DNA from: Octopus vulgaris
Taxonomy: Eukaryota
Assembly: GCA_951406725.2 (NCBI GenBank)
Contig: OX597817.1
Coordinates: 96,844,001-96,908,000, forward strand
DNA length: 64,000 nt
Reading direction: 5' to 3'
The notes under the pieces were generated by a model that saw only the letters and a program-made list of their open reading frames with translations, did no database searches and had not been told where the DNA came from. Positions 6,345 through 40,750 of this stretch are shown here, piece after piece. A program made the position numbers and the translations under genes. How positions within the stretch are numbered: position 1 is the stretch's first letter; each line of letters starts with the position of its first letter.

Positions 6345-7883
6345 TGATTGATTGATTGATTGATTCTAGTTTCAGCTTATGAGCTGTGGCCATGCTGGGG
6401 CACCGCCATTTGGTGTTGCTACTTGGTTTCACTTCATGGAGGCTTTCTAGCAACTGCTATTTGGTGCATGAGAGATATATGCAGCTGCCCTCATCTGCCC
6501 CTCCTGCCGTGAAGTTGGTTCATCTGGGACACCTGACAGGAAGAGATCCAGCTTCATTTTAAAGACATCTGTATCCACCCCATGCAGGTCTCTCAGGTTC
6601 TTCGGGAGGATATTGAAGAGCTGTGGGCCTCGGAAGCCCAGGCTATCACAGAATCTTGTCCTACATCTTGATGGCAGGTTTGGAGTCCTAGGCACCACGC
6701 AGTGGCGCCCAGTTCTGGCATTTGCGTAACTCTCGATGCCAAAGTTCAGGACACTTCCCTCCAGGATCTTCCAGATGTATATTATGGCATATCTTTCCCG
6801 CCTACGCTCCAGGGAATATAATTTTAATCTCTTGAGTCTTTCCCAGTAGCTTACATTCTGCATAGAGGCTATCTTCTTTGTGTAGCTTCGTTGGATCGCC
6901 TCAAGTTCTGTGATCAACTTGACACTGGATGGTGACCATAGCTGAGAGCAATAGTCAAAGTGGCTTAGGACAAGTGTCTTCCAGAGGACCATCATGGTTT
7001 CTTGTTCTCTGTTCTAAAGGTTCTAAGAATCCATCCAGCCAGCCGTCTACATTTCATTGTCAGTTTAGCAACATGTACATGAAAGGTCGCGTCATCACTC
7101 ATGTGAATACCCAGGTCACGCACTGATTGTGCCTCTGGGATTGCAATCCCTCCGGGTCCAGTGTATTCATTGGGTATTGCATTCAGTTTTGCATGCTGAT
7201 AGTATAAAGCTTGAAACTTTCCAGCATTGAACTGCATGCTATTCTTTTCAGCCCACTTGTATATTTCGTCCAGCTCACATTGCAGGTGTTTAGTGTCCTC
7301 AGGGTTCTGTATTGCCTGTGAAACTTTTGTATCATCTGCATAACTTGTGATCGTGGCTCTCTGCGTGGCTGAGGGCATGTCTGAGAGGGCCATTATGAAC
7401 AGTAGTGGTCCCAGAACAGTGCCCTGCGGAACACCGCTCACTATTTGTGTGTTAATGGAGGTGGCCCCATTGGCTACTACCACCTGACTTCTATCCTTCA
7501 GAAAGTCATGAAGCCATTCTCCCAGTTTTCCAACTATGTTGAGATCACGCAGTTTGTGACATATCATTCCATGATCGACTTTATCAAAGGCCTTTGCAAA
7601 GTCGAGATATATCACTTCCACATTTGAGTGGTTGAGCAGCCGTTTCAGCACCCAGTCATAGTGTTGTAGGAGCTGAGTTAAACAGCTTCTCCTGGTCGGA
7701 AACCATGTTGGGTGTCGGGCAGCAAGTCATTCTCTTCAAGGAAGGTGATCAGCTTCCTTCTGACTATTCGTTCCATGACCTTGCTGATGTGTGAGGTCAG
7801 AGAGATAGGTCTATAGTTCTTGGCTTCCGCTCTGCTACCTCCTTTATGAATGGGGCATATTTTACCTTCCTTCAGTTTTCCTG
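6341..7883 (-). mobile_element. 5'-truncated CR1-group LINE, near-identical inverted copy of 11393-12935, with (ATCA)n tail
   Basis: The ORF-track peptides match the C-terminal half of the 1034-aa ORF apart from single-base indels. (TGAT)n at 6341-6365. Flanked by (AT)n on both sides. Confidence 0.96.
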
Positions 7884-7885
7884 AA

Positions 7886-9683
<1,798 letters not shown>

Positions 9684-12600
9684 CACAAACAGCCAACATG
9701 ATGTTGTCGAAAGAGCAGTTGCTGAGCAACAATCTTTTTTTGTGCATGGCACAAAAGATTGTACAGCAGCTGACCTGGCTTCATCAAACCCAAGCCCGCA
9801 TGTGGGACTACCCACTATATACCAGACCACCACAGCAAACAGACACAGGATGGACACCGCCGGCAACAACATACACCTCACCTCGATACTCCTACTGAAC
9901 ATCAGAGGACTGCAAACACTCAGTAACAGGACAAAGATCCCGTTCCTGAGAGACTTTGTTGCATGCAATCAAGCCTTATGCATAGCACTTACAGAAACGC
10001 ACCTGAATCCGGACATAGCAGATGCGGAGTTACACATACCACAGTATGCTGTACTACGGACCGACAGGAAAGAAAGGAGTCATGGAGGTGTTGCTATGTA
10101 CATCCGTGAGGACCTCACACCCCAGGTCCTCTTGTCATACTCAAACTCGGTGTGTGACACACTAATTGTACATATTAGGCAACTTGATGTAGTTGTGTGT
10201 GCTACATATCGCCCTCCAGATGCCCCAAGCCATGTGGGCAAGTTTGAAGACTGCCTTATAAAAATAGAAGAAATTCTAACCACATTAGAACAACACATAG
10301 GTGTGCTTCTTATGGGAGACTTCAATCTGCCCAATGTCAGATGGCCCGAGGGCCTTTCTCTCCCAGGAATGACAAGATGTGAACGAGGACAGGCGAGGTC
10401 CCTCCTGAACCTCATCAACACCCTGTACATGGAGCAGGTAATACTCCAACCAACCAGGGCAGGTAACACACTGGATCTCTGCTTCACAAATGACATGGAT
10501 CTCATCCATAATGTGAAAGTGACACCGACACTACTCTCGGATCACAACATGATAGAGCTGACCATGTACGGGCCAAAAGAGAGCACGGACATGCAGCCTA
10601 CAAGAAACCCTCAAAATCTTTCCAGCTTGAACTACCATAAGGCAAACTGGAAACAAATTGAGAAAGAGATCCTCAAACAAAACTGGCCTAAATGTCTCTC
10701 CTCGCCAGACATCGACGTGAAACTTCAACAATTCATGTCTGTAATGCAAGCCATATGCTACAAATGTGTCCCAGAGAGAAAGGCCACTGTACACAAGAAC
10801 AAAATCCCCAGAGAGAGGAAAATTTTAATGAGACGGCGTACGAAATTTTCAAATCGCCTAAACAAACAGATTGAAAGCAGTGAAAAGTCCCGCCTAAAAA
10901 TAAAACTGTTGGAAATCGAAAAATGTCTGCAACTCTCCCATGAAAAAGAAAGAGCAGACAAAGAAGCCTGGGCTATAGAAAACATAAAATCTAACCCCAG
11001 AGCTTTCTACAGGTATGCCAAAGAAACAGCTACAGTGCACTGTAGAATAGGGCCACTCCTCGAAAAGGATGGCACACTTACAGGAAAACCAATGAGGGTA
11101 AGTGAAATACTGAATGAGCAATTCAAGAGTGTTTTCACTCCACCCCTTGGGCATCTCCAAATCACCAATCCAACTGACTTTTTTACCACTGCAGATATAA
11201 AATCAGAGGCGGCGACGATAGATTACATCGATATAAAGGAAGACGATGTAACCAAGGCTATAGATGAAATGAAAACAGACTCAGCTACTGGCCCCGATGG
11301 ATTCCCGGCAATCCTCCTAAAAGCATGTAAGAGAGTCCTAGCAAGACCACTGCAGTTCCTCTTTCAGAGCTTCCTTGCAGCTGGCAAACTTCCAGGAAAA
11401 CTGAAGGAAGGTAAAATATGCCCCATTCATAAAGGAGGTAGCAGAGCGGAAGCCAAGAACTATAGACCTATCTCTCTGACCTCACACATCAGCAAGGTCA
11501 TGGAACGAATAGTCAGAAGGAAGCTGATCACCTTCCTTGAAGAGAATGACTTGCTGCCCGACACCCAACATGGTTTCCGACCAGGGAGAAGCTGTTTAAC
11601 TCAGCTCCTACAACACTATGACTGGGTGCTGAAACGGCTGCTCAACCACTCAAATGTGGAAGTGATATATCTCGACTTTGCAAAGGCCTTTGATAAAGTC
11701 GATCATGGAATGATATGTCACAAACTGCGTGATCTCAACATAGTTGGAAAACTGGGAGAATGGCTTCATGACTTTCTGAAGGATAGAAGTCAGGTGGTAG
11801 TAGCCAATGGGGCCACCTCCATTAACACACAAATAGTGAGCGGTGTTCCGCAGGGCACTGTTCTGGGACCACTACTGTTCATAATGGCCCTCTCAGACAT
11901 GCCCTCAGCCACGCAGAGAGCCACGATCACAAGTTATGCAGATGATACAAAAGTTTCACAGGCAATACAGAACCCTGAGGACACTAAACACCTGCAATGT
12001 GAGCTGGACGAAATATACAAGTGGGCTGAAAAGAATAGCATGCAGTTCAATGCTGGAAAGTTTCAAGCTTTATACTATCAGCATGCAAAACTGAATGCAA
12101 TACCCAATGAATACACTGGACCCGGAGGGATTGCAATCCCAGAGGCACAATCAGTGCGTGACCTGGGTATTCACATGAGTGATGACGCGACCTTTCATGT
12201 ACATGTTGCTAAACTGACAATGAAATGTAGACGGCTGGCTGGATGGATTCTTAGAACCTTTAGAACAAGAGAACAAGAAACCATGATGGTCCTCTGGAAG
12301 ACACTTGTCCTAAGCCACTTTGACTATTGCTCTCAGCTATGGTCACCATCCAGTGTCAAGTTGATCACAGAACTTGAGGCGATCCAACGAAGCTACACAA
12401 AGAAGATAGCCTCTATGCAGAATGTAAGCTACTGGGAAAGACTCAAGAGATTAAAATTATATTCCCTGGAGCGTAGGCGGGAAAGATATGCCATAATATA
12501 CATCTGGAAGATCCTGGAGGGAAGTGTCCTGAACTTTGGCATCGAGAGTTACGCAAATGCCAGAACTGGGCGCCACTGCGTGGTGCCTAGGACTCCAAAC

Positions 12601-12935
12601 CTGCCATCAAGATGTAGGACAAGATTCTGTGATAGCCTGGGCTTCCGAGGCCCACAGCTCTTCAATATCCTCCCGAAGAACCTGAGAGACCTGCATGGGG
12701 TGGATACAGATGTCTTTAAAATGAAGCTGGATCTCTTCCTGTCAGGTGTCCCAGATGAACCAACTTCACGGCAGGAGGGGCAGATGAGGGCAGCTGCATC
12801 GAACTCTCTCATGCACCAAATAGCAGTTGCTAGAAAGCCTCCATGAAGTGAAACCAAGTAGCAACACCAAATGGCGGTGCCCCAGCATGGCCACAGCTCA
12901 TAAGCTGAAACTAGAATCAATCAATCAATCAATCA
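9684..12935 (+). mobile_element. CR1-group non-LTR retrotransposon with intact ORF2, embedded in (AT)n
   Basis: Single long ORF, ~65-nt 3' UTR and (ATCA)n tail. (AT)n on both sides. No ORF1 visible, so probably 5'-truncated. Confidence 0.95.
9742..12846 (+). CDS. LINE ORF2: APE endonuclease + reverse transcriptase (first in-frame ATG at 9850)
   Basis: APE motifs LLNIRGL, ALTETHL, YRPP, MGDFN, TLDL, SDH. RT motifs [37 protein letters not shown]. No stops in 1034 codons. Confidence 0.96.
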
Positions 12936-16054: not shown

Positions 16055-17063
<1,009 letters not shown>

Positions 17064-17213
17064 CATTTATATATAATGATAACTAACTGTATATAACTAA
17101 CTCTGATATTTATCATTGTTTTATTTCACTTTTTCAATATCAGCGACAGTGGACGCTGGAAAAAGTATAAGTATTTGTGAAGGAAATTCATTCTCGGCGA
17201 CAACTATGATTGT

Positions 17214-17258
17214 CACACGCTGACGAGAGGTCAATACCTCGAAACTCGAGTCCGTGTG
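17214..17258 (+). ncRNA. Type I hammerhead ribozyme, canonical core
   Basis: CACACG-CTGACGA-GAGGT-CAAT-ACCTC-GAA-ACTCGAGT-C-CGTGTG. Perfect stems I and II, palindromic stem III, GUC site at 17250-17252. Confidence 0.92.
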
Positions 17259-17566
17259 TATCATAAGTTGAAGACGGGAGGGATGACTTCCTTTGCAAAT
17301 ACTGACAGGACACAGAAAGTGTGTCTATGGCCAGCTGGAGGAGTGTGTCCTCCTGGGGCTTAAAACTACAGTAGCATCCACCCTTAGGGGTTAGCCATAT
17401 TGAAATGGCAAAAATACGTCATGATGTGTTACCGCTACTGTATATAACTAACTCTGATATTTATCATTGTTTGATTTCACTTTTTTCAATATCAGCGACA
17501 GTGGACGCTGGAAAAAGTATAAGTATTTGTGAAGGAAATCTAACTCTCGGCGACAACTATGATTGT

Positions 17567-17611
17567 CACACGCTGACGAGAGGTCAATACCTCGAAACTC
17601 GAGTCCGTGTG
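17567..17611 (+). ncRNA. Type I hammerhead ribozyme, canonical core (second copy)
   Basis: Identical to 17214-17258. Predicted cleavage after 17605. Confidence 0.92.
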
Positions 17612-17772
17612 TATCATAAGTTGAAGACGGGAAGGATGACTTCCTTTGCAAATACTGACAGGACACAGAAAGTGTGTCTATGGCCAGCTGGAGGAGTGTG
17701 TCCTCCTGGGGCTAAAAACTCACAGTAGCATCCACCCTTAGGGGTTAGCCATATTGAAATGGCAAAAATACG

Positions 17773-18026
<254 letters not shown>

Positions 18027-18038
18027 ATATATATATAT

Positions 18039-18233
18039 GTGAATTTCCGAGCGCGAGCAAGATAGGTGTTTGAACTGCTATTTTGAATTCTTTACTGACC
18101 ATTCATAATTTTATCAAATTTCTCTATCTGTCTATCTTATCTAATCTTATTCATTTCATTTCTCCTCGTATATAATCAACATTCGTATCTTCGCGCCATC
18201 TTGAAGCCTTTCCTCTCTAATACACATGTGCTA

Positions 18234-18267
<34 letters not shown>

Positions 18268-19136
18268 ATCTACAAGCTGTGAATTTCCGAGCGCGAGCAA
18301 GATAGGTGTTTGAACTGCTATTTTGAATTCTTTACTGACCATTCATAATTTTATCAAATTTCTCTATCTGTCTATCTTATCTAATCTTATTCATTTCATT
18401 TCTCCTCGTATATAATCAACATTCGTATCTTCGCACCATCTTGAAGCCTTTCCTCTCTAATACATATGTGCTATCTCTCTCTCTCTCTCTTTCTCTCTCA
18501 TCTGCAAGCTGTGAATTTCCCGAGCGTGAGCAAGATAGGTGTTTGAACTGCTATTTTGAATTCTTTACTGACCATTCATAATTTTATCAAATTTCTCTAT
18601 CTGTCTATCTTATCTAATCTTATTCATTTCATTTCTCCTCGTATATAATCAACATTCGTATCTTCGCTCCATCTTGAAGCCTTTCCTCTCTAATACATAT
18701 GTGCTATCTCTCTCTCTCTCTCTTTCTCTCTCTCATCTGCAAGCTGTGAATTTCCGAGCGCGAGCAAGATAGGTGTTTGAACTGCTATTTTGAATTCTTT
18801 ACTGACCATTCATAATTTTATCAAATCTCTCTATCTGTCTATCTTATCTAATCTTATTCATTTCATTTCATTTCTCCTCGTATATAATCAACATTCGTAT
18901 CTTCGCGCCATCTTGAAGCCTTTCCTCTCTAATACACATGTGCTATCTCTCTCTCTCTCTCTCTTTCTCTCTCATCTACAAGCTGTGAATTTCCGAGCGC
19001 GAGCAAGATAGGTGTTTGAACTGCTATTTAAATTCTTTACTGACCATTCATAATTTTATCAAATTTCTCTATCTGTCTATCTTATCTAATCTTATTTCAT
19101 TTCTCCTCGTATATAATCAACATTCGTATCTTCGCG
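18039..19136. repeat. Tandem satellite, ~236-bp unit x4.6, with internal (CT)n
   Basis: Units begin GTGAATTTCCGAGCGCGAGC at 18039, 18279, 18511, 18746 and 18985. Confidence 0.96.
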
Positions 19137-21942: not shown

Positions 21943-22206
21943 AATACATACATATATATATATATATACATATAAATACATATATATATATATACATATA
22001 CTTATATATATGTATATATACGTACATATATGTATATATACGTACATATATATATATATATATACTTATATATATGTATATATACGTACATATATTCATA
22101 TATATATACATACATATATATATATACACATACATATATTTATATATGAATATATATATATGTGTTTGTGTGTGTGTGTATATATATATATATATACACA
22201 CACATA

Positions 22207-22246
<40 letters not shown>

Positions 22247-22251
22247 CATAT

Positions 22252-22877
22252 ACGCGTATGTAGCTGCCGGTCAAGTAGTGTGGAGCGACTGACCTCCCTT
22301 GTTCGAAGGTTATATGGATACAGTTTGTGTATCAAATAGCTAACTTAAGGCGATGGCCTCATGGAGCTAATAAGCGGACAGCTTTTTTCTTATTTTTATA
22401 AGAATGCCATATTAGTATGGCGATAACTATTATTTTCCGGGAACGCTGCCGCTGTTCTCTTTTAGAGAGACTTAGTTATTTTAATATTTCTATTATTGAA
22501 AACAAGTGGATGTATTCCACCGAAACTAGGTAAATAAAACCATCGAACAGAGATTGTCGGAAGCGACACCTACTGGCTGGCTACGCTGCATTGAAAAGGG
22601 GCAATACCCCGAAACGCATCTGTAGCTGCCGGTCAAGTAGTGTGGAGCGACTGACCTCCCTTGTTCGAAGGTTATATGGATACAGTTTGTGTATCAAATA
22701 GCTAACTTAAGGCGATGGCCTCATGGAGCTAATAAGCGGACAGCTTTTTTCTTATTTTTTCTTATTTTTCTTATTTTTATAAGAATGCCATATTAGTATG
22801 GCGATAACTATTATTTTCCGGGAACGCTGCCGCTGTTCTCTTTTAGAGAGACTTAGTTATTTTAATATTTCTATTAT
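22252..22877 (+). repeat. Tandem 362-bp unit x1.7 containing a hammerhead
   Basis: TGTAGCTGCCGGTCAAGTAGTG at 22259 and 22621. Flanked by (AT)/(AC) microsatellite. Confidence 0.93.
22585..22626 (+). ncRNA. Type I hammerhead ribozyme, U3-A8 variant
   Basis: GCTGCA-TTGAAAA-GGGG-CAATA-CCCC-GAA-ACGCAT-C-TGTAGC. Stem I GCTGCA/TGTAGC (one G-U), stem II GGGG/CCCC. Confidence 0.8.
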
Positions 22878-22979
22878 ATATATATACACATACATATATT
22901 TATATATATATATATATATATATATAAACACATACATATATTTATATATAAATATATATATTTATATATATAAATATAT

Positions 22980-23084: not shown

Positions 23085-24765
23085 TTTTGCCAGTACTGGC
23101 CCAGGCCATGTCTGACTTAACACCACCACCTGGCGAAGTCTTTCAATTCAGGATTTGGGCACCAAGGCCCATTCGAGCAGAGAGTTATTGTTTGCGGTGA
23201 CATATCCGGGTGTGGGTGGTTTGTCCGGGACTGTTTGAAGGAATTTGTCCAAAGACTTCTTGAATTTTGTGTGGTGAGTTTCTGTTTTGACGTGTCCTGC
23301 TGTAATGTTGAAGAGAGCGGGTCCAATTCAGGTGAAATAATTGTGCCGTATTGTTGTTATGTGATGCGATTTAGATTTTTTTTGTGGACGGATGGCATGT
23401 GGTCCAAGCCTTGGATGTATTTTGAAGGTGATGCCAACATCATTCGGACAGTGCTGATGGAATATTTTCCACATCATACAGATAATGTAGCGTTCACGGC
23501 GTCGTTGGAGTGAATACAGTTTCAGCTTCTCTAATCTACCCCAGTAGTCGAGGTCTGACATGCCATCTATCTTTTTTGTGATTGACTTTTGGGGAGCTTC
23601 AATTCTCATAATATTTTGTTTTGTGTAGGGAGACCACAGTGGACAGCAGTATTCAAGGTGGGGTCGGGCCAAATTGGAGAAGAGAAGGATAATGGTGTGG
23701 GAATCTCTCGACTGGAAGGTTCTGAGAATCCAGGAACACATTCTGCGGGCCATGTCAACTTTGCTGCTTATATGTGTAGCCCAGCTTATGTTGTTGTCCA
23801 ATGTTACTCCCAAGTCTCTGATGTTGTTAGATGCCATGAGAATTTCTCCAGAAGGAAGGGAGTTTCAGAGCGTCCTCCCTTCCAAAGTGGATCAGTTCGA
23901 ATTTGTCTTCGTTTAGCAACATGTTGTTCCTTTCCGCCCATTGGACAACATCCAGTAGGTCTGACTGAAGGCTTATTCAGTCATCCATGCCATTGATGAC
24001 CTTCTGGAGCTTGGAATCATCAGCGAAGGTTCTGATGTTACTGTGTTTGATGGTGTCAGTAATATCATTTATGTAGATGATGAAAAGAAGTGGGCCCAAC
24101 ACAGTGTCTTGTGGGACACCACTGCTGACTTTGGGTGGGCTGGATTTGACTCCTTCGACTACAACATGTTGGGTTCTATTAGACAGGAAGCACTTGATCC
24201 ACTGCAGCAGCTTTCCCGTGACACCAATATTGGACAGTTTTCTCAAAAGGAATTTATGATCAACCCTGTCAAAGGCCTTGCTGAAATCAAGGTAGATGAC
24301 ATCAGTGTTGGAACCCTCTCCCAAGGCTCTCAAAATGTCATCAAAATGATGCAGTAGCTGCGTCAGGCAATCTCTTCCATTACGGAATCCATGCTGGTTG
24401 GAATTCAGCATATTATGACTCTCAAGGAAGTGAGTTATACGCGATCTCAGCACTCTCTCAAATACCTTAATGATGTGAGAGGTGAGTGAGATTGGACGGT
24501 AATTCACGGCAAGCGATTTGTTTCCTTTTTTGAAAACTGGGACAACAGACTGGGATAGAAGGTCTTCTGGTATATATCCAGCATCCAGTGAGTTCCGCCA
24601 CAGATTGGCTAGAGGGGGTGCAAGTTGGTGTTGACACATCTTCAAGACACAAGCAGGGAACCTATCGGGACCTACTGCTGAATTATGCTTCATTTCCTTT
24701 ATTGCTGCTAAGACATCAGGAGCGCCAAAGGTTATGTCCGATAAAGTATATTGGGGAGTATTTAC
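23085..24765 (-). mobile_element. Second CR1-group LINE family, 5'-truncated and frameshifted RT
   Basis: ORFs 23977-24810 ([24 protein letters not shown]) and 23328-23837 (LEYC..WSP, LYSLQRRRERY). Confidence 0.92.
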
Positions 24766-24784
24766 ATATATATATATAAGTAAA

Positions 24785-25330
24785 TAAATGGCTGACCAGT
24801 TCCCAGACATCTGTGGAGGTCTATTTCGTGATGATTGTCTGCTTTACCTCGAAAACATTTCAAATCAAAAAATACAGAAGGTTAAGAATAGATTAGTTAG
24901 GTTTTTTCATAGAATGGGCTTTCACATCGTTTTTGACGATGAGTTAACTAAAGCTAACTTCTTAGATATTACTCTTAATTGACAAAATAACTCGTACTTC
25001 CCATACCACAAACCTTCTACAAATCTCAAGTATATTAGTTCTTCCAGTAATCACACTAGGGCACTTACTAAGAATTTAGTTAAAAACATTTCAGTTAGAT
25101 TGTCTAAACTATCCGCCAATGTTGACATTTTTAACGACCAGGCAGAATTTTATAACTCTCTTGGTTAAAGCTGGGTATAAAGAAAAAGTTACATACATTG
25201 ATTCTGCTCAATCTCGTCCTTCATCTACTGTTCAAGTAAAAAAATTTAGTTGTAATAATAAGAGTGATTTTAATTCTAATATTGTAAACAACACAAAAAA
25301 TAATAAAATTCCTTTACGGGGTAAGGGAGG
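24785..25330 (+). mobile_element. Penelope-like RT fragment (left part, interrupted)
   Basis: GGLFRDDCL, NFLDITLN and Y.PYHKP motifs of PLE RT, with stops. Confidence 0.7.
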
Positions 25331-25339
25331 CAAGCGTTA

Positions 25340-26378
25340 TAATAATAATAATAATAATAATAATGAAATTATTGTATACAGTGCTCAGGTGCACCACAAC
25401 TTGTCAGAAAGTGCATATAAAGTATATGCAGTAATGTACAAATGTCTGGAAAGAGAACAATGTATGAGTCAGATACATGCTTGTGTGTGTATGGAGGGGA
25501 GGAAATCAGGTGTAGAGTTGGCGAATCTCAGAAAGCAAGGAAGTTTTGAAGGATGCAGTGCTCCGACAACTAACAACTGATGCTGGCAGTTTGTTCCATG
25601 CTTCAGCAACTCTCAGCGTGAAAAAATGTTTCCGAAAGTCATGGGAGCTGTGCTGTTTTCTGATTTTGTAAATATGTCCACGGGTGTTAGACTGGTGGAG
25701 TTTGAAAAGGTGCTCTGAGTTATTGTTTGTAAGATGGTTGATAATTTTATGGGTGTCTGCCAAGTCAGCTGCCAGACATCGAAGTTTCAATGTGGCCATG
25801 CCCAGGGAAGTAAGTTGTTCAGAATATGGCAAATGCCTGATGGAGGGTATTCTTTTGGTTGCACGTCGCTGAACGACTTCCAGACGATTGATATCCTGGG
25901 CAAGATAGGGGTTCCAGACCGGTGATGCAAATTCCAGGTAAGGTCTTACCATAGCTATATAAAACCGCAGATAGATAGTCGGAGAGCAGCTCACAAAGGA
26001 TTTGGTGAGTGATGCCAAGACACCCTCAGCCTTCTTGACAATTTTAGCGATGTGTTTTGTCCAACGCAAATCACTGTTGACAATAACACCCAGGTCACGT
26101 TCACACAAAGACTTTTTGAGATTAGTCTTGTGGAGGGAATAGGTGGACGCTGGGTTTCTCCTCCCAAAATGCATGGTGGTACATTTGTCCACAGCCAGCT
26201 TGAGTTGCCAGTCTATGATCCACTGCTGCATTGTGTCCAGGTCTGCTTGCAATAGAGATCTATAGTGTACAGGATCTGACCTCTTTATTTCAAGGTACAG
26301 CTTGATGTCATCTGCATATTTCAGCACTGTGGCATTCTTTAAGTTGGCATCTATGTCATTAACATATGCAACAAAAGC
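25340..26378 (-). mobile_element. CR1-group LINE 3' fragment with (ATT)n tail, nested in the Penelope fragment
   Basis: ORF 25506-26327 has YADD, ERDLGV, VRPYLEFASPVWNP and TRGH..K motifs. (AAT)n at 25340-25363. Confidence 0.9.
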
Positions 26379-26379
26379 C

Positions 26380-26850
26380 CATTTTTTTCACTCTAGAGGT
26401 ATTTCACCGTCCTATTGAATGTTAATAGGAAAACTATCTGGTTTGTAATTCTGTATGGAAAACAAATTAAATCTAATCTTCCTTTACAATTCCGTGAAGT
26501 GGTTGGTAAGAACTTTCCAAAAAATTCTAAATATTATTCAATTATTAATTCTCATATAATTAGGGTTGCCTTCTCCAACACAAAGAATCTTTCACAAATT
26601 ATATCTTCTCATAATACCAGTCTGCTAAATAAAAATTCATTTTCTGGGAGTTCCAACATTAATTTTGTTTAGTCCAGCCCCTCACATAATAATAATAATA
26701 ACAACAACAGCAGCAGCAGCAGCAACACTAAAAACATGGTTTTGGTCTCTGAAGACAACCCCAACAGAATTAAATTCATGTCTAATAATTCTAAGATCAA
26801 GAATTCTATATACCAATGTAAAATTTCTTGCGGTACCGATGTCTAATCTC
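26380..26850 (+). mobile_element. Penelope-like fragment (right part; linker before GIY-YIG)
   Basis: IWF..VGKNFPKNSKYYSIINSHIIRVAFSNTKNLSQIISSHN resembles the PLE RT-EN linker. Confidence 0.55.
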
Positions 26851-28385: not shown

Positions 28386-29113
28386 AATTTTATTTAGTTT
28401 CAGCTCACAAGCTGTGGCCATGCTGGGGCACCGCCATTTGGTGTTGCTACATGATTTTACTTCACGAATGCTTTTTAGCAAATGCCATCTGGTGCATGAG
28501 AGAGTTTGATGCAGCTTCCCTCATCTGCACCTCCTGCCGTGAAGTTGGTTCATCTGGGACACCTGACAAGAAGAGATCCAGTTTCATTTTAAAGACATCT
28601 GCATCCACCCCATGCAGGTCTCTTAGGTTCTTCGGGAGGATATTGAAGAGCTGTGGGCCTCGGAAGCCCAGGCTATCACAGTATCTTGTCCTACATCTTG
28701 ATGGCAAATTTGGAGTCCTTGGCACTATGCAGTGGCGCCCAGTTCTGGCATTTGTGTAACTCTCGATGCCAAAGTTTGGGACAAGTCCTTCTAGGATCTT
28801 CCAGATGTATATTATGGCATATCTTTCTCGCCTACACTCCAAGGAATAGAGTTTTAATCTCTTGAGTCTTTCCCAGTAGCTTATATTCTGCACAGAGGCT
28901 ATCTTCTTCGTGTAGCTACGTTGGATCGCCTCAAGTTCTGTGATCAACTTGACACTGGATGGTGACCATAGCTGAGAGCAATAGTCAAAGTGGCTTAGGA
29001 CAAGTGTCCGCCAGAGGACCATCATGGTTTCCTGGTCTCTTGTTCTAAAGGTTCTAAGAATCCATCCGGTCAGCCGCCTACATTTCATTGCCAATTTAGC
29101 AACATGCACATGA
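28372..29113 (-). mobile_element. 3' fragment of the 9.7-kb LINE family (related subfamily, A-rich tail)
   Basis: ORF 28462-29109 is highly similar to the C-terminus of 9742-12846 and has the same 3' UTR motif. (TA)n on both flanks. Confidence 0.93.
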
Positions 29114-29788
29114 ATATATATATATATTGTAACTTTTGAGAGTATTTTACATCATTTTACAGAAATGTGTGTTCTGTTCTAATTCCAACCAATATTTATG
29201 GTTTAATTCTTAATATTTTTTTGTACCTATAGGGACAGGTATGAGTTTAGTTAGGAAGTTTGCTTCATAACTTCATGGTTAAAAATTTAATCCCACTATG
29301 CAACAACTTGAGCAACTGTCTGATGCTAAAGCCTGTGCTAACCAATGCCATATGAGTGAAATTAATAGACAGAAACTGCTTGGTAGACCATTATGTTTGT
29401 GCATAAGCGCTCAAATGTTGACATTCCATGGTTTCATTTTTTATTGTCAAAGCTAAATGGTGAGAGGATGTTTACATTGCTCCTTCACATTACAGCTAGT
29501 CATTCTATACTTATTAAGAGCTGTTGAAAACAAAGTCCCTTATTTGAAAGACATGCAATGGTTGACTGTAAATTGTCTCAATTAAGTCCCTCTCTATGGA
29601 ATAATGTGTTAAACACACCTACTAAAAGTATAAACTGTTCCATTTCATCTCTTTTCTTTAGTTCTTCAAATTTTCTTGACATTTCTGAAAGTTTGTTTTT
29701 ATTTTTATTTTCTACGATTAAATGATAATTGGAAAATATTTCTTCATAAAATACTAATAATTGAATATTTTCTTTAAAGATATTTCAG

Positions 29789-30974: not shown

Positions 30975-31029
<55 letters not shown>

Positions 31030-31172
31030 AAACAACTTATAAACAAGAGCAAAAGAAAACATTATTATGCCAAATATGCCGAAAATAGATAAATTGTCAA
31101 TAACCATATAATTTATCACTATTAAAATGCATCTCGAAGTAAGCTGACAGAAATTTCTAAAAAATTCCGTTA

Positions 31173-31233
31173 TTACCGTATTGGTCCCAATTTCAGAGTT
31201 AATTCATAAGAATTTTCTCCTCATCAGCGATAA
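31173..31233 (-). ncRNA. Type I hammerhead ribozyme (inverted copy)
   Basis: Reverse complement of 31874-31934. Confidence 0.88.
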
Positions 31234-31873
31234 ATACGTAAGACATAAATGAAATACTTGCTCATACCCATGGAAAAAGCAAGCACTAAAATAGGAAATC
31301 TTCAGCACATCTCGAGACACATGCGATTCAAACTAGAAACTCTCACAGAGTGAGAGAGTCTGGAAGTGAACGCTATTAAATTTACATCTAATATAGGATA
31401 ATATTTTTCTAAAAAAATTTTATAAATGGTCAGCATATTAAAATATGTTATTACTGTATTGGGACCAATACGGTAATAACGGAATTTTTTAGAAATTTCT
31501 GTCGGTTTACTTTGAGATGCATGTTAATAGTGATAAATTATATGGTTATTGATAATTTGTCTATTTTTGGCATATTTGGCATTAGAATTTTTTCTTTTGC
31601 CCTTGTTTATAAATTTAACCTTTAAAGGTATTTTTTAATATACTGGCCATTAATAAAATTTTTTTGAAAAATTTTATCCTATATTAGATGTAAATTTAAT
31701 AGTATTCACTTCCGGACTCTCTCACTCTGTGAGAGTTTCTAGTTCGAATCACACGTATCTCGAGATGTGCTGAAGATTTTCTATGTCGGATATATTTGGG
31801 GTACTTAAGTCTGCTCATGACTTAGTGCTTGCTTTTTCTATGGGTATGAGTAAGTATTTCATGTCTTACGTAT

Positions 31874-31934
31874 TTATCGCTGATGAGGAGAAAATTCTTA
31901 TGAATTAACTCTGAAATTGGGACCAATACGGTAA
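31874..31934 (+). ncRNA. Type I hammerhead ribozyme, canonical core, extended stem II
   Basis: TTATCG-CTGATGA-GGAG(AA-AATTC-TTAT-GAATT-AA)CTCT-GAA-ATTGG-GA-CCAAT-A-CGGTAA. Cleavage predicted after 31928. Confidence 0.88.
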
Positions 31935-32158
31935 TAACGGAATTTTTTAGAAATTTCTGTCGGCTTACTTCGAGATGAATGTTAATAGTGATAAATTATA
32001 TGGTTATTGACAATTTGTTTATTTTCAGCATATTTGGCATTAGAATTTTTTTCTTTTGCCCTTGTTTATAAGTTGTTTATAAATTTAACCTTTAAAGGTA
32101 TTTTTTAATATGCTGGCCATTGATAAAATTTTTTTCGAAAAAGTTTATCCTATATTAG

Positions 32159-32225
<67 letters not shown>

Positions 32226-39144: not shown

Positions 39145-40750
39145 ATCATCATCATCGTTTAGCGTCCGCTTTCCATGCTAGCATGGGTTGGACGGGTCAA
39201 CTGGGGTCTGTGAAGCTGGAAGGCTTCGTCAGGCCCAGTCAGATCTGGCAGTGTTTCTACGGCTGGATGCCCTTCCTAACGCCAACCACTCCGCGAGTGT
39301 AGTGGGTGTTTTTTACGTGCCACCTGCACAGGTGCCAGACAGAGCTGGCGAACGGCCACGAACGGATGGTGCTTTTACGTGTCACCGGCACAGGGCCAGG
39401 CGATGCTGGCAACAGACACGAATGGATGGTGCTTTTACGTGCCACCGACATGGTTGCCAGACAGAGCTGGCAAACGGCCACGCGCGGACGGTGCTTTTAT
39501 GTGTCACCGGCACGGGGGCCAGCCGAGGCTGGCAACGGACACGAACGGATGGTACTTTTACGTGCCACCGACACGGGGCCAGACAGAGCTGGCAAACGGC
39601 CACGAACGGATGGTGCTTTTACGTGCCACCGACACGGGGCCAGACAGAGCTGGCAAACGGCCACGAACGGACGGTGCTTTTACGTGTCACCGGCACGGGG
39701 CCAGGCGAGGCTGGCAACGAACACGAACGGATGGTGCTTTTACGTGCCACCGACACGGGGCCAGGCAGAGCTGGCAAACGGCCACAGCGAATGGTGCTTT
39801 TACGTATCACCGGCACGGGTGCCAGACGAGGCTGACAGCGGACATGAACGGATGGGTCACTTAACCCCTGCTTTCTGATATATGATTTGATTTTGATTGT
39901 TCTCACTGGTTTTGCCGGGTCTTCTCACGCACAGCATACTTCCATAGGTCTCGGTCTCTGGTCATTTCCTTGGTGAGACCTAGAGTTCGAAGGTCATGCT
40001 TCACCACCTCGACCCAGGTTTTCCTTGGTCTACCTCTTCCACAGGTCCCCTCAACTGCCAGGGTGTGGCACTTTTTCACACACCTATCTTCATCCATTCT
40101 CACCACATGACCATACCAGCGCAATCGTCTCTCTTGCACACAACATCTGATTCCTCTTAGGTCCAACTTTTCTCTCAAGGTACTTACACTCTGTCGACTA
40201 TGAACACTGACATTACACATCCAACGGAGCATACTAGCTTCATTTCACGCGAGCTTACGCATGTCCTCAGCAGTCACAGCCCATGTTTCACTGCCATGTA
40301 GCATGGCTGTTCGTACACATGTATCATACAGTCTGCCTTTTACTCTGAGCGAGAGGCCTTTAGTCACCAACAGAAGTAAGAGCTCCCTAAACTTTGCCCA
40401 GGCTATTCTTACTCTAGCCTTACTCTACACTTTCAGCACACCCACCCCCACTACTGACTTGGTCACCAAGATAACGGAAGCTATCAACTACTTCTAGTTT
40501 TCCCCCTGGAAAGTGACGGAAGTTGTTTTCTGCAGATTTTCAGAGGTTAATGCTCCCGAGCATCTGCCACATACAAAAACCATCTTCCTAGTTAGCCTTC
40601 CTATGACATTGCTGCACCTCTTATGTGTCCATAGCTTACACTTGGTGCATCTTATAGAGTTTCTACCTACACCTTTTCTACAGATCGAGCAGGGCCATCT
40701 ACCTGAAGGCATTTGTGATTTGTCTACCTTCCTACTTATTAGGACTTTGG
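39145..40750 (-). mobile_element. RTE-clade LINE 3' portion: ORF2 C-terminus, minisatellite 3' UTR and (GAT)n tail
   Basis: MLRWMC..RRLRWYGHVVRM..RGRPRKTW motifs; Cys/His finger at ~40560-40700. Confidence 0.9.
39307..39855. repeat. ~59-60-bp minisatellite x9 inside the RTE 3' UTR
   Basis: Unit TTTTACGTGCCACCGACACGGGGCCAGACAGAGCTGGCAAACGGCCACGAACGGATGGTGC. Confidence 0.95.

Follow-up and report, generated by a model that had tools for sequence, protein, structure and literature searches.

Introduction

The closest described systems are the non-LTR retrozymes of metazoans, tandem arrays of 150–450 bp units with a 1-bp helix III and a palindromic tetraloop in the hammerhead, cleavage as dimers and long target-site duplications (TSDs). 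In the model drawn for them the cleaved monomers are circularized, and Penelope-like elements (PLEs) are proposed as the mobilizers (Cervera and de la Pena 2020, PMC7229834). For one PLE, the purified protein was found to nick AT-rich DNA and to prime internally at fixed sites, with hammerhead cleavage dispensable in vitro (PMC11167929), and what the hammerhead does in Penelope-type retrotransposition is described as unclear (PMC8557442, PMC11167929). In a preprint on Xenopus, only one of nine predicted retrozyme dimers cleaved in vitro (bioRxiv 10.64898/2026.07.22.740005). That self-cleavage can define the 5′ junction of an element has a precedent in the R2 retrotransposons, which carry HDV-like ribozymes (PMC3774820).

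The replacement of the C3-G8 pair of the hammerhead core by U3-A8 is a natural covariation that was active in vitro in earlier work (PMC3088659; Przybilski and Hammann 2007 cited through it), and about 1,300 minimal motifs of this type are reported from S. mansoni (Cervera and de la Pena 2014, PMC4209133). Literature searches found U3-A8 in PMC4209133 only. In the openly readable literature we found neither a canonical U3-A8 retrozyme nor a retrozyme from a cephalopod, and supplements may list some; literature listings contained no survey of retrozyme 5′ ends, and the word "ribozyme" has no occurrence in PMC13282606. Here we analyze an insert in a 64,000-nt stretch of Octopus vulgaris DNA (hereafter, the window) that carries such a core.

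Results

Anatomy of the Insert

The locus contains a 625-base non-coding insert that consists of 1.7 copies of a 362-base unit and carries a hammerhead RNA motif (Table 1). TGTAGC opens both copies, at 22259 and 22621, with a period of 362, and the 238 unit positions of the second copy all agree with the first save for a 19-nt expansion of a T-rich motif. The complete unit folds to −126.9 kcal/mol (z = −8.6), and none of 100 shuffles was equally stable. The longest methionine-started stretch in the insert is 38 aa, and no LTR-like arrangement was seen in its sequence. Tracts of TA/CA flank the insert on both sides, and (TA)n tracts and fragments of LINEs abound in the window as a whole. That the insert is a non-LTR retrozyme is highly probable. 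Li et al. 2026 regard as active those arrays in which two consecutive units have complete hammerheads; the present locus carries one complete hammerhead and a 5′ stub of the substrate side, which lowers the case for this copy as an active source, not that for its family membership.

Table 1. Coordinates of the insert, its parts and related elements in the window
Feature	Coordinates	Strand	Basis or remark
Penelope-like 3′ fragment: Cys-rich linker and GIY-YIG-like domain followed by the 3′ region up to (TA)n	8241..9119	−	ORF 8586-9086
Related two-unit array, 353-bp unit, canonical C3-G8 hammerheads, in TA microsatellite	17061..17773	+	cores at 17220, 17573
Candidate TSD, left copy, ~63 bp, low-complexity TA/CA tract	22190..22252	+	reciprocal best match with 22880-22940
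5′ stub: palindromic ACGCGT (first A shared with flank), then A at the cleavage-nucleotide position (C in family)	22252..22258	+	family stem III
Complete retrozyme unit, cut to cut, 362 nt	22259..22620	+	41% G+C, non-coding, highly self-paired
Stem I 5′ strand, TAC internal loop six pairs from core	22570..22590	+	fold
Catalytic core 5′ strand TTGAAAA, U3 = 22591, A8 = 22596	22591..22597	+	descriptor; no core-pair variant at ≥3% depth
Stem II, 4 bp, GGGG/CCCC, loop CAATA	22598..22610	+	sequence and fold
GAAA (22611-14), 1-bp stem III with tetraloop, U16.1, C17 = 22620	22611..22620	+	predicted cut 22620/22621
Second unit, 3′-incomplete: 238 unit positions plus 19-nt expansion	22621..22877	+	starts with stem I 3′ strand
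Candidate TSD, right copy	22880..22940	+	reciprocal best match with left flank

The Hammerhead and Its U3-A8 Core

A strict type I descriptor matched three times in the window, at this motif and twice in a neighboring array, and had no match on either strand of 200 block-wise dinucleotide shuffles. Rfam overlooked all three window hammerheads: the family was absent from the matches at gathering score and also from the 28 matches at E ≤ 10. Two loose hammerhead-like matches, at 31880 (+) and 31227 (−), lie in an inverted repeat and did not pass the strict descriptor.

Stem I of the motif pairs GCTGCA with TGTAGC and continues beyond a TAC/T internal loop (fold z = −5.05; 0 of 200 shuffles equally stable). 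Helices I and II have 6 and 4 bp, respectively, and helix III is short. The core elements are all present, namely a Watson-Crick 3-8 pair (U3-A8), the GAAA element, the A15.1-U16.1 pair and an H17 nucleotide (C17). The TAC internal loop and the CAATA loop presumably resemble the Schistosoma motif, and we take the internal loop of stem I to have the tertiary role that type I architecture suggests.

On these points our analysis agrees with the earlier note, which had described a 362-bp unit with its first copy starting at 22259, had read the core as TTGAAAA with C3 and G8 both changed and the 3-8 pair kept, and had predicted a cut after 22620; the motif layout, with C17 at that position, places the cut there as well. 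The note had also named an outcome that would turn the core into simple decay of one copy, a family consensus of CTGANGA. No such consensus is present, as seen from sequencing runs. At least half of the sampled sequence words of the unit occur in 20 of 24 listed runs (11 studies, 7 organism labels), and contigs of four of them (X1, X3, X4 and X11) were aligned at 80% likeness to one permuted unit, 22385–22746. Coverage at the core was deep in X3 and X4, thin just upstream of it in X1 and limited to one contig in X11. Differences were counted from 3% of depth, which gave 29 variant rows over 362 nt. Because neither U3 nor A8 has a variant row at or above this depth in any of the four runs, the aligned sequences identify U3-A8 as a compensatory, family-wide core and not as decay of this copy. 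C17 is likewise without variant at ≥3% depth in all four runs. The invariance of the 13 core positions as a group is not significant, about one variant being expected from 29 rows over 362 nt. The family ribozyme is probably active; since only one of nine predicted retrozyme dimers cleaved in the Xenopus preprint, activity is not to be assumed.

Variation within the Family

The unit belongs to a dispersed multi-copy family. In three DNA-like runs 2,416, 1,195 and 1,872 contigs aligned to it, with many variants (these are contig counts, not copy numbers), and the U3-A8 family is young, with many copies. At the internal junction of our copy stem III reads ACGCAT (22614–22619), with tetraloop CGCA, compared with CGCG in the family. 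G occupies position 22618 in 97.6% (X1), 99.7% (X3) and 99.8% (X4) of the depth and in the one contig of X11. Stem III of the family is thus the palindrome ACGCGT, and the internal ACGCAT is a rare change at a CpG that has lost the palindrome of the family majority; among the 362 nt compared it is the only private change. The calculated self-duplex energy of ACGCGT is −7.5 kcal/mol vs. −2.3 kcal/mol for ACGCAT. Given the stronger self-pairing of the palindrome, we predict cleavage as dimers for the family and poor cleavage at the internal site for this copy.

The three commonest helix variants, at 22608 (C>T), 22629 and 22633, all preserve pairing. Among 11 variants checked, the pair is kept in five and broken in four and the position is unpaired in two; three of the four pair-breaking variants come mainly from one divergent contig. 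In X1, five contigs run on after 22576 with a stem I that diverges and with a core-like stretch off the hammerhead consensus, possibly a degenerate subfamily.

Contigs span the unit all round, cut included: one X4 contig does so, and a 392-nt contig of X11 (362 + 30) forms a closed 362-nt unit, its one difference from the window being at 22618. This closed contig is as compatible with tandem DNA as with a circle and is not evidence of expression; X11 is only presumed to be RNA, and none of the listed runs is on record as such. Joints "going back 360–362" were rejected as proof of tandem arrays, as they cross the seam of the permuted unit and any intact copy yields them. Family-specific patterns had no match in metagenome contigs, GTDB genomes or viral contigs. 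A general U3-A8 pattern matched six viral loci, none of which folds as a hammerhead; its at least 120 metagenome matches are attributed to chance, with none listed that combines a 4-bp stem II with a stem I of at least 4 bp.

A Related C3-G8 Array and a Penelope-like Fragment

In the neighboring two-unit array both type I hammerheads are complete, with cuts at 17252/53 and 17605/06 and a palindromic stem III. Its unit shares 53.5% global identity with the U3-A8 unit (z = 7.7), and the ribozyme-free body alone gives z = 5.8 (500 shuffles each). By this sequence comparison the C3-G8 array is homologous to the U3-A8 unit. The 5′ end of the array lies 167 nt upstream of its cut, and about 25 nt at that end are outside the assigned parts. 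A hairpin, GCCATATT...ATGGC, is common to the array and the U3-A8 unit.

The window also contains one Penelope-like fragment, located between TA tracts, which we regard as a candidate for the type of mobilizer. Its Pfam GIY-YIG match has E = 0.0073 and 17 bits, below the 22.6 cut-off, and the reverse transcriptase part is absent; its Atlas look-alike is a GIY-YIG cluster at 0.95. A likeness between the 3′ ends of this fragment and of the U3-A8 unit was rejected, being AT-rich and not significant. By eye, the 3′ region of the fragment contains a hammerhead-like stretch at approximately 8335–8397; its core reads CCGAAGA (U4C-type), its stem II is long, and one additional base precedes GAAA.

Termini of the Insert

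The 3′ end is recurrent. In X3, 14 contigs pass into (AT)n after 22496, which is the same unit position (238) as 22877, the last base of the insert. Such a recurrent 3′ end before (AT)n would match, as expected, Penelope-type priming.

At the 5′ end, the hexamer at 22252–22257 equals the family-majority stem III upstream of the cut. Both ACGCGT and CGCG are found just once in the window's 9,951 bases of alternating microsatellite sequence, in each case at this site, and a perfect 10-bp palindrome occupies 22250–22259. With a gap of 2 nt permitted, the candidate TSD flanks match each other better than anything else on either strand of the window (cost 3.0 vs. 5.25 and 4.75 for the next best); an ungapped test does not single them out, the tract being of low complexity with local higher-order repeats. 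Beyond the candidate TSD, the right flank reads TTTA where the left reads CGCG. By the candidate TSD, the 5′ end of the insert falls at 22252/53, 6–7 nt upstream of the cut. Because the ACGCGT stub matches the family stem III, is unique in the microsatellite and lies inside the candidate TSD boundaries, it is best read as insert sequence. A boundary set by cleavage is then not supported, because a cleaved 5′ end starts with TGTAGC and lacks stem III. In addition, the insert reads through the second, internal cut site. Retention of stem III together with this internal read-through indicates that at both junctions the template either was uncut, had been re-joined or was jumped across.

These data change the reading of the 5′ boundary given in the earlier note. 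The ACGCGT-A that it had seen before 22259 is there. Its statement that the unit begins exactly at the cleavage site applies to the tandem register, while the insert itself starts at 22252/22253; similarly, the 5′ boundary of the array does adjoin the self-cleavage site, as it had proposed, but that cleavage set it is not supported, given the retained stem III stub. The further step, from this boundary to an active ribozyme, is not borne out: the stub is element sequence that cleavage would remove, and the edge of the insert does not show that its RNA cuts itself. A 5′ end of this kind is not of the R2 type, as 6–7 nt of element sequence are retained upstream of the cut. In R2 the cut removes the upstream RNA (PMC3774820), whereas here upstream element sequence is kept and an internal cut site is read through.

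The contigs of other copies, a weak material for such tests, show no loose ends at 22614–22621 among the 18 of 297 rows listed, and no pile-up of contig ends was reported. From 22629 to 22618 the depth falls by 9% in X4, 21% in X3 and 58% in X1, as it would if the 5′ ends of some copies lay close to the cut; contig depth was rejected as boundary evidence, as it shows no step even at the known 3′ end. Two findings count against ordinary truncation. Of truncations at random, about 4% (15 of 362 positions) would end no more than 7 nt from the cut, and the sole mismatch of the stub is at position 17 (A for the family C).

Discussion

Collectively, the data place the insert in a new family of metazoan non-LTR retrozymes, the U3-A8 core itself being a published natural variant. 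Like the retrozymes of mussel (350–390 bp units) and axolotl (Rtz_331), it is a tandem, non-coding unit, here of 362 bp, with G+C below 50%; it has a type I hammerhead at the junction, with a 1-bp helix III and palindromic tetraloop as in HHR_Amex1, and it shares with them a strongly self-paired unit, a long candidate TSD and a candidate Penelope-like element nearby (PMC7229834). It differs from the retrozymes in the accessible text of that report by its U3-A8 instead of C3-G8 pair, by the single complete hammerhead at the locus and by being known from sequence alone. The same compensatory 3-8 change is found in the hammerheads of the Schistosoma Cercyon PLEs (PMC4209133) and in natural U3-A8 cores (PMC3088659). 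The Schistosoma motifs, however, are minimal, have a long helix II and reside in PLE terminal repeats (PMC4209133), whereas here a 6-bp helix I and a 4-bp helix II occur in a non-autonomous unit. With PLEs and their pseudo-LTRs the insert shares a partial-tandem structure, a fixed 3′ end, a (TA)n target, a candidate TSD of the kind that varies in length and a type I hammerhead (PMC8557442, PMC11167929, bioRxiv 10.64898/2026.07.22.740005); unlike them it has no ORF, and beyond AT-rich matches no homology to the one PLE fragment of the window was detected.

How the insert arose is best accounted for, in our view, by copying of a non-LTR retrozyme by a Penelope-like reverse transcriptase from uncut or re-joined RNA, with the 5′ end a truncation past the junction; we consider this account as a whole rather probable. 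In this model, multimeric transcripts would self-cleave, probably as double hammerheads that pair via ACGCGT, and the monomers may circularize. A GIY-YIG endonuclease of the Penelope type would nick AT-rich DNA, and copying would begin at a fixed internal position of the unit, position 238. Copying would run through one junction and break off 6–7 nt beyond the second, close to the base of the G+C-rich stem II, which amounts to an ordinary truncation of the 5′ end; a staggered second nick would then yield the ~63-bp duplication. The two private changes, at 22618 (CpG) and at 22258 (which completes the 10-bp palindrome with the flank), may date from the insertion itself or from later. The read-through and the fixed 3′ end match the cleavage independence and the fixed internal start of the PLE enzyme (PMC11167929), and the homologous C3-G8 array, with its 5′ end 167 nt away from its cut, also speaks for this account.

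The position of the 5′ end within 7 nt of the cut leaves room for a different origin, in which the template had already been cut here: the reverse transcriptase would have crossed the nick, or a re-ligated junction, to the neighboring 3′ end kept in place by stems I and III, inserted a wrong nucleotide at position 17, gone on for six bases and stopped. The lone mismatch of the stub does fall on the cleavage nucleotide (C17 to A), which is otherwise without variant at ≥3% depth in the four runs, and both private changes of the locus lie at most 3 nt from a cut site. Yet this is one case only, and C17 is intact at the internal junction; the A also completes the 10-bp palindrome and restores purine-pyrimidine alternation, so that a templated change at the DNA level explains it equally, and in vitro a PLE worked on RNA that had not been processed (PMC11167929). 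We regard such an event at the junction as unlikely; were it true, the boundary would indirectly record an active U3-A8 ribozyme. Far less credible is that the insert starts exactly at the cut, at 22259, and that ACGCGTA is target DNA or untemplated filler. Perfect identity with the second copy does start there, ACGCGTA alternates purine and pyrimidine as the tract does, and R2 elements have 5′ junctions at the ribozyme cut (PMC3774820); against this stand the six stub bases that equal the family stem III, the single occurrence of CGCG and of ACGCGT in 9,951 alternating bases and the right duplication copy, which continues TTTA where the left has CGCG.

The family could also be a derivative of Penelope terminal repeats that is copied without any self-cleavage, with U3-A8 fixed in a founder by chance or by earlier selection. 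PLE priming in vitro does not need cleavage (PMC11167929), eight of nine Xenopus dimers remained uncleaved (bioRxiv 10.64898/2026.07.22.740005), and in a young family the invariance of the core lacks statistical significance. We nevertheless think a relic of this sort quite improbable, as two coordinated core changes preserve the 3-8 pair, the stems, loop II and palindrome are intact, and the existence of a sister family at 53.5% identity with the same ribozyme architecture implies long selection on it.

With many copies in this young family, 5′ ends and changes at position 17 could show whether cut or circular RNAs serve as templates. If an error left at a crossed junction were the true origin of the stub, genomic retrozyme copies would record ribozyme cleavage in vivo and would provide the first sequence-level test of cut or circularized RNAs as retrotransposition templates, with U3-A8 beside its C3-G8 sister. 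The homologous C3-G8 family only 5 kb away makes a natural pair for the effects of a 3-8 swap on cleavage and on dimer dependence. A canonical hammerhead with a fixed U3-A8 pair, in an animal group for which we found no retrozyme report, is in itself a modest addition; searches that require CUGANGA would miss U3-A8 families.

Other Features of the Window

At 18038–19136 a 240-bp unit that includes a (CT)n tract is repeated 4.7 times; this array abuts TA microsatellite and may be another Penelope-mobilized tandem, and neither descriptor found a hammerhead in it. The element at 31027–32160, located between TA tracts, contains one long inverted repeat together with partial direct repeats and is the source of the false loose hammerhead match. 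At 39311–39855 lies a G+C-rich minisatellite with nine copies of a 61-bp unit. An open frame of 1,085 aa at 9589–12846 (+) has, by eye, endonuclease- and reverse-transcriptase-like motifs of the LINE type. Related fragments are found at 33–1334, 6447–8331, 23328–24843, 25506–26387 and 28462–29151 (−), and many of them adjoin TA tracts.
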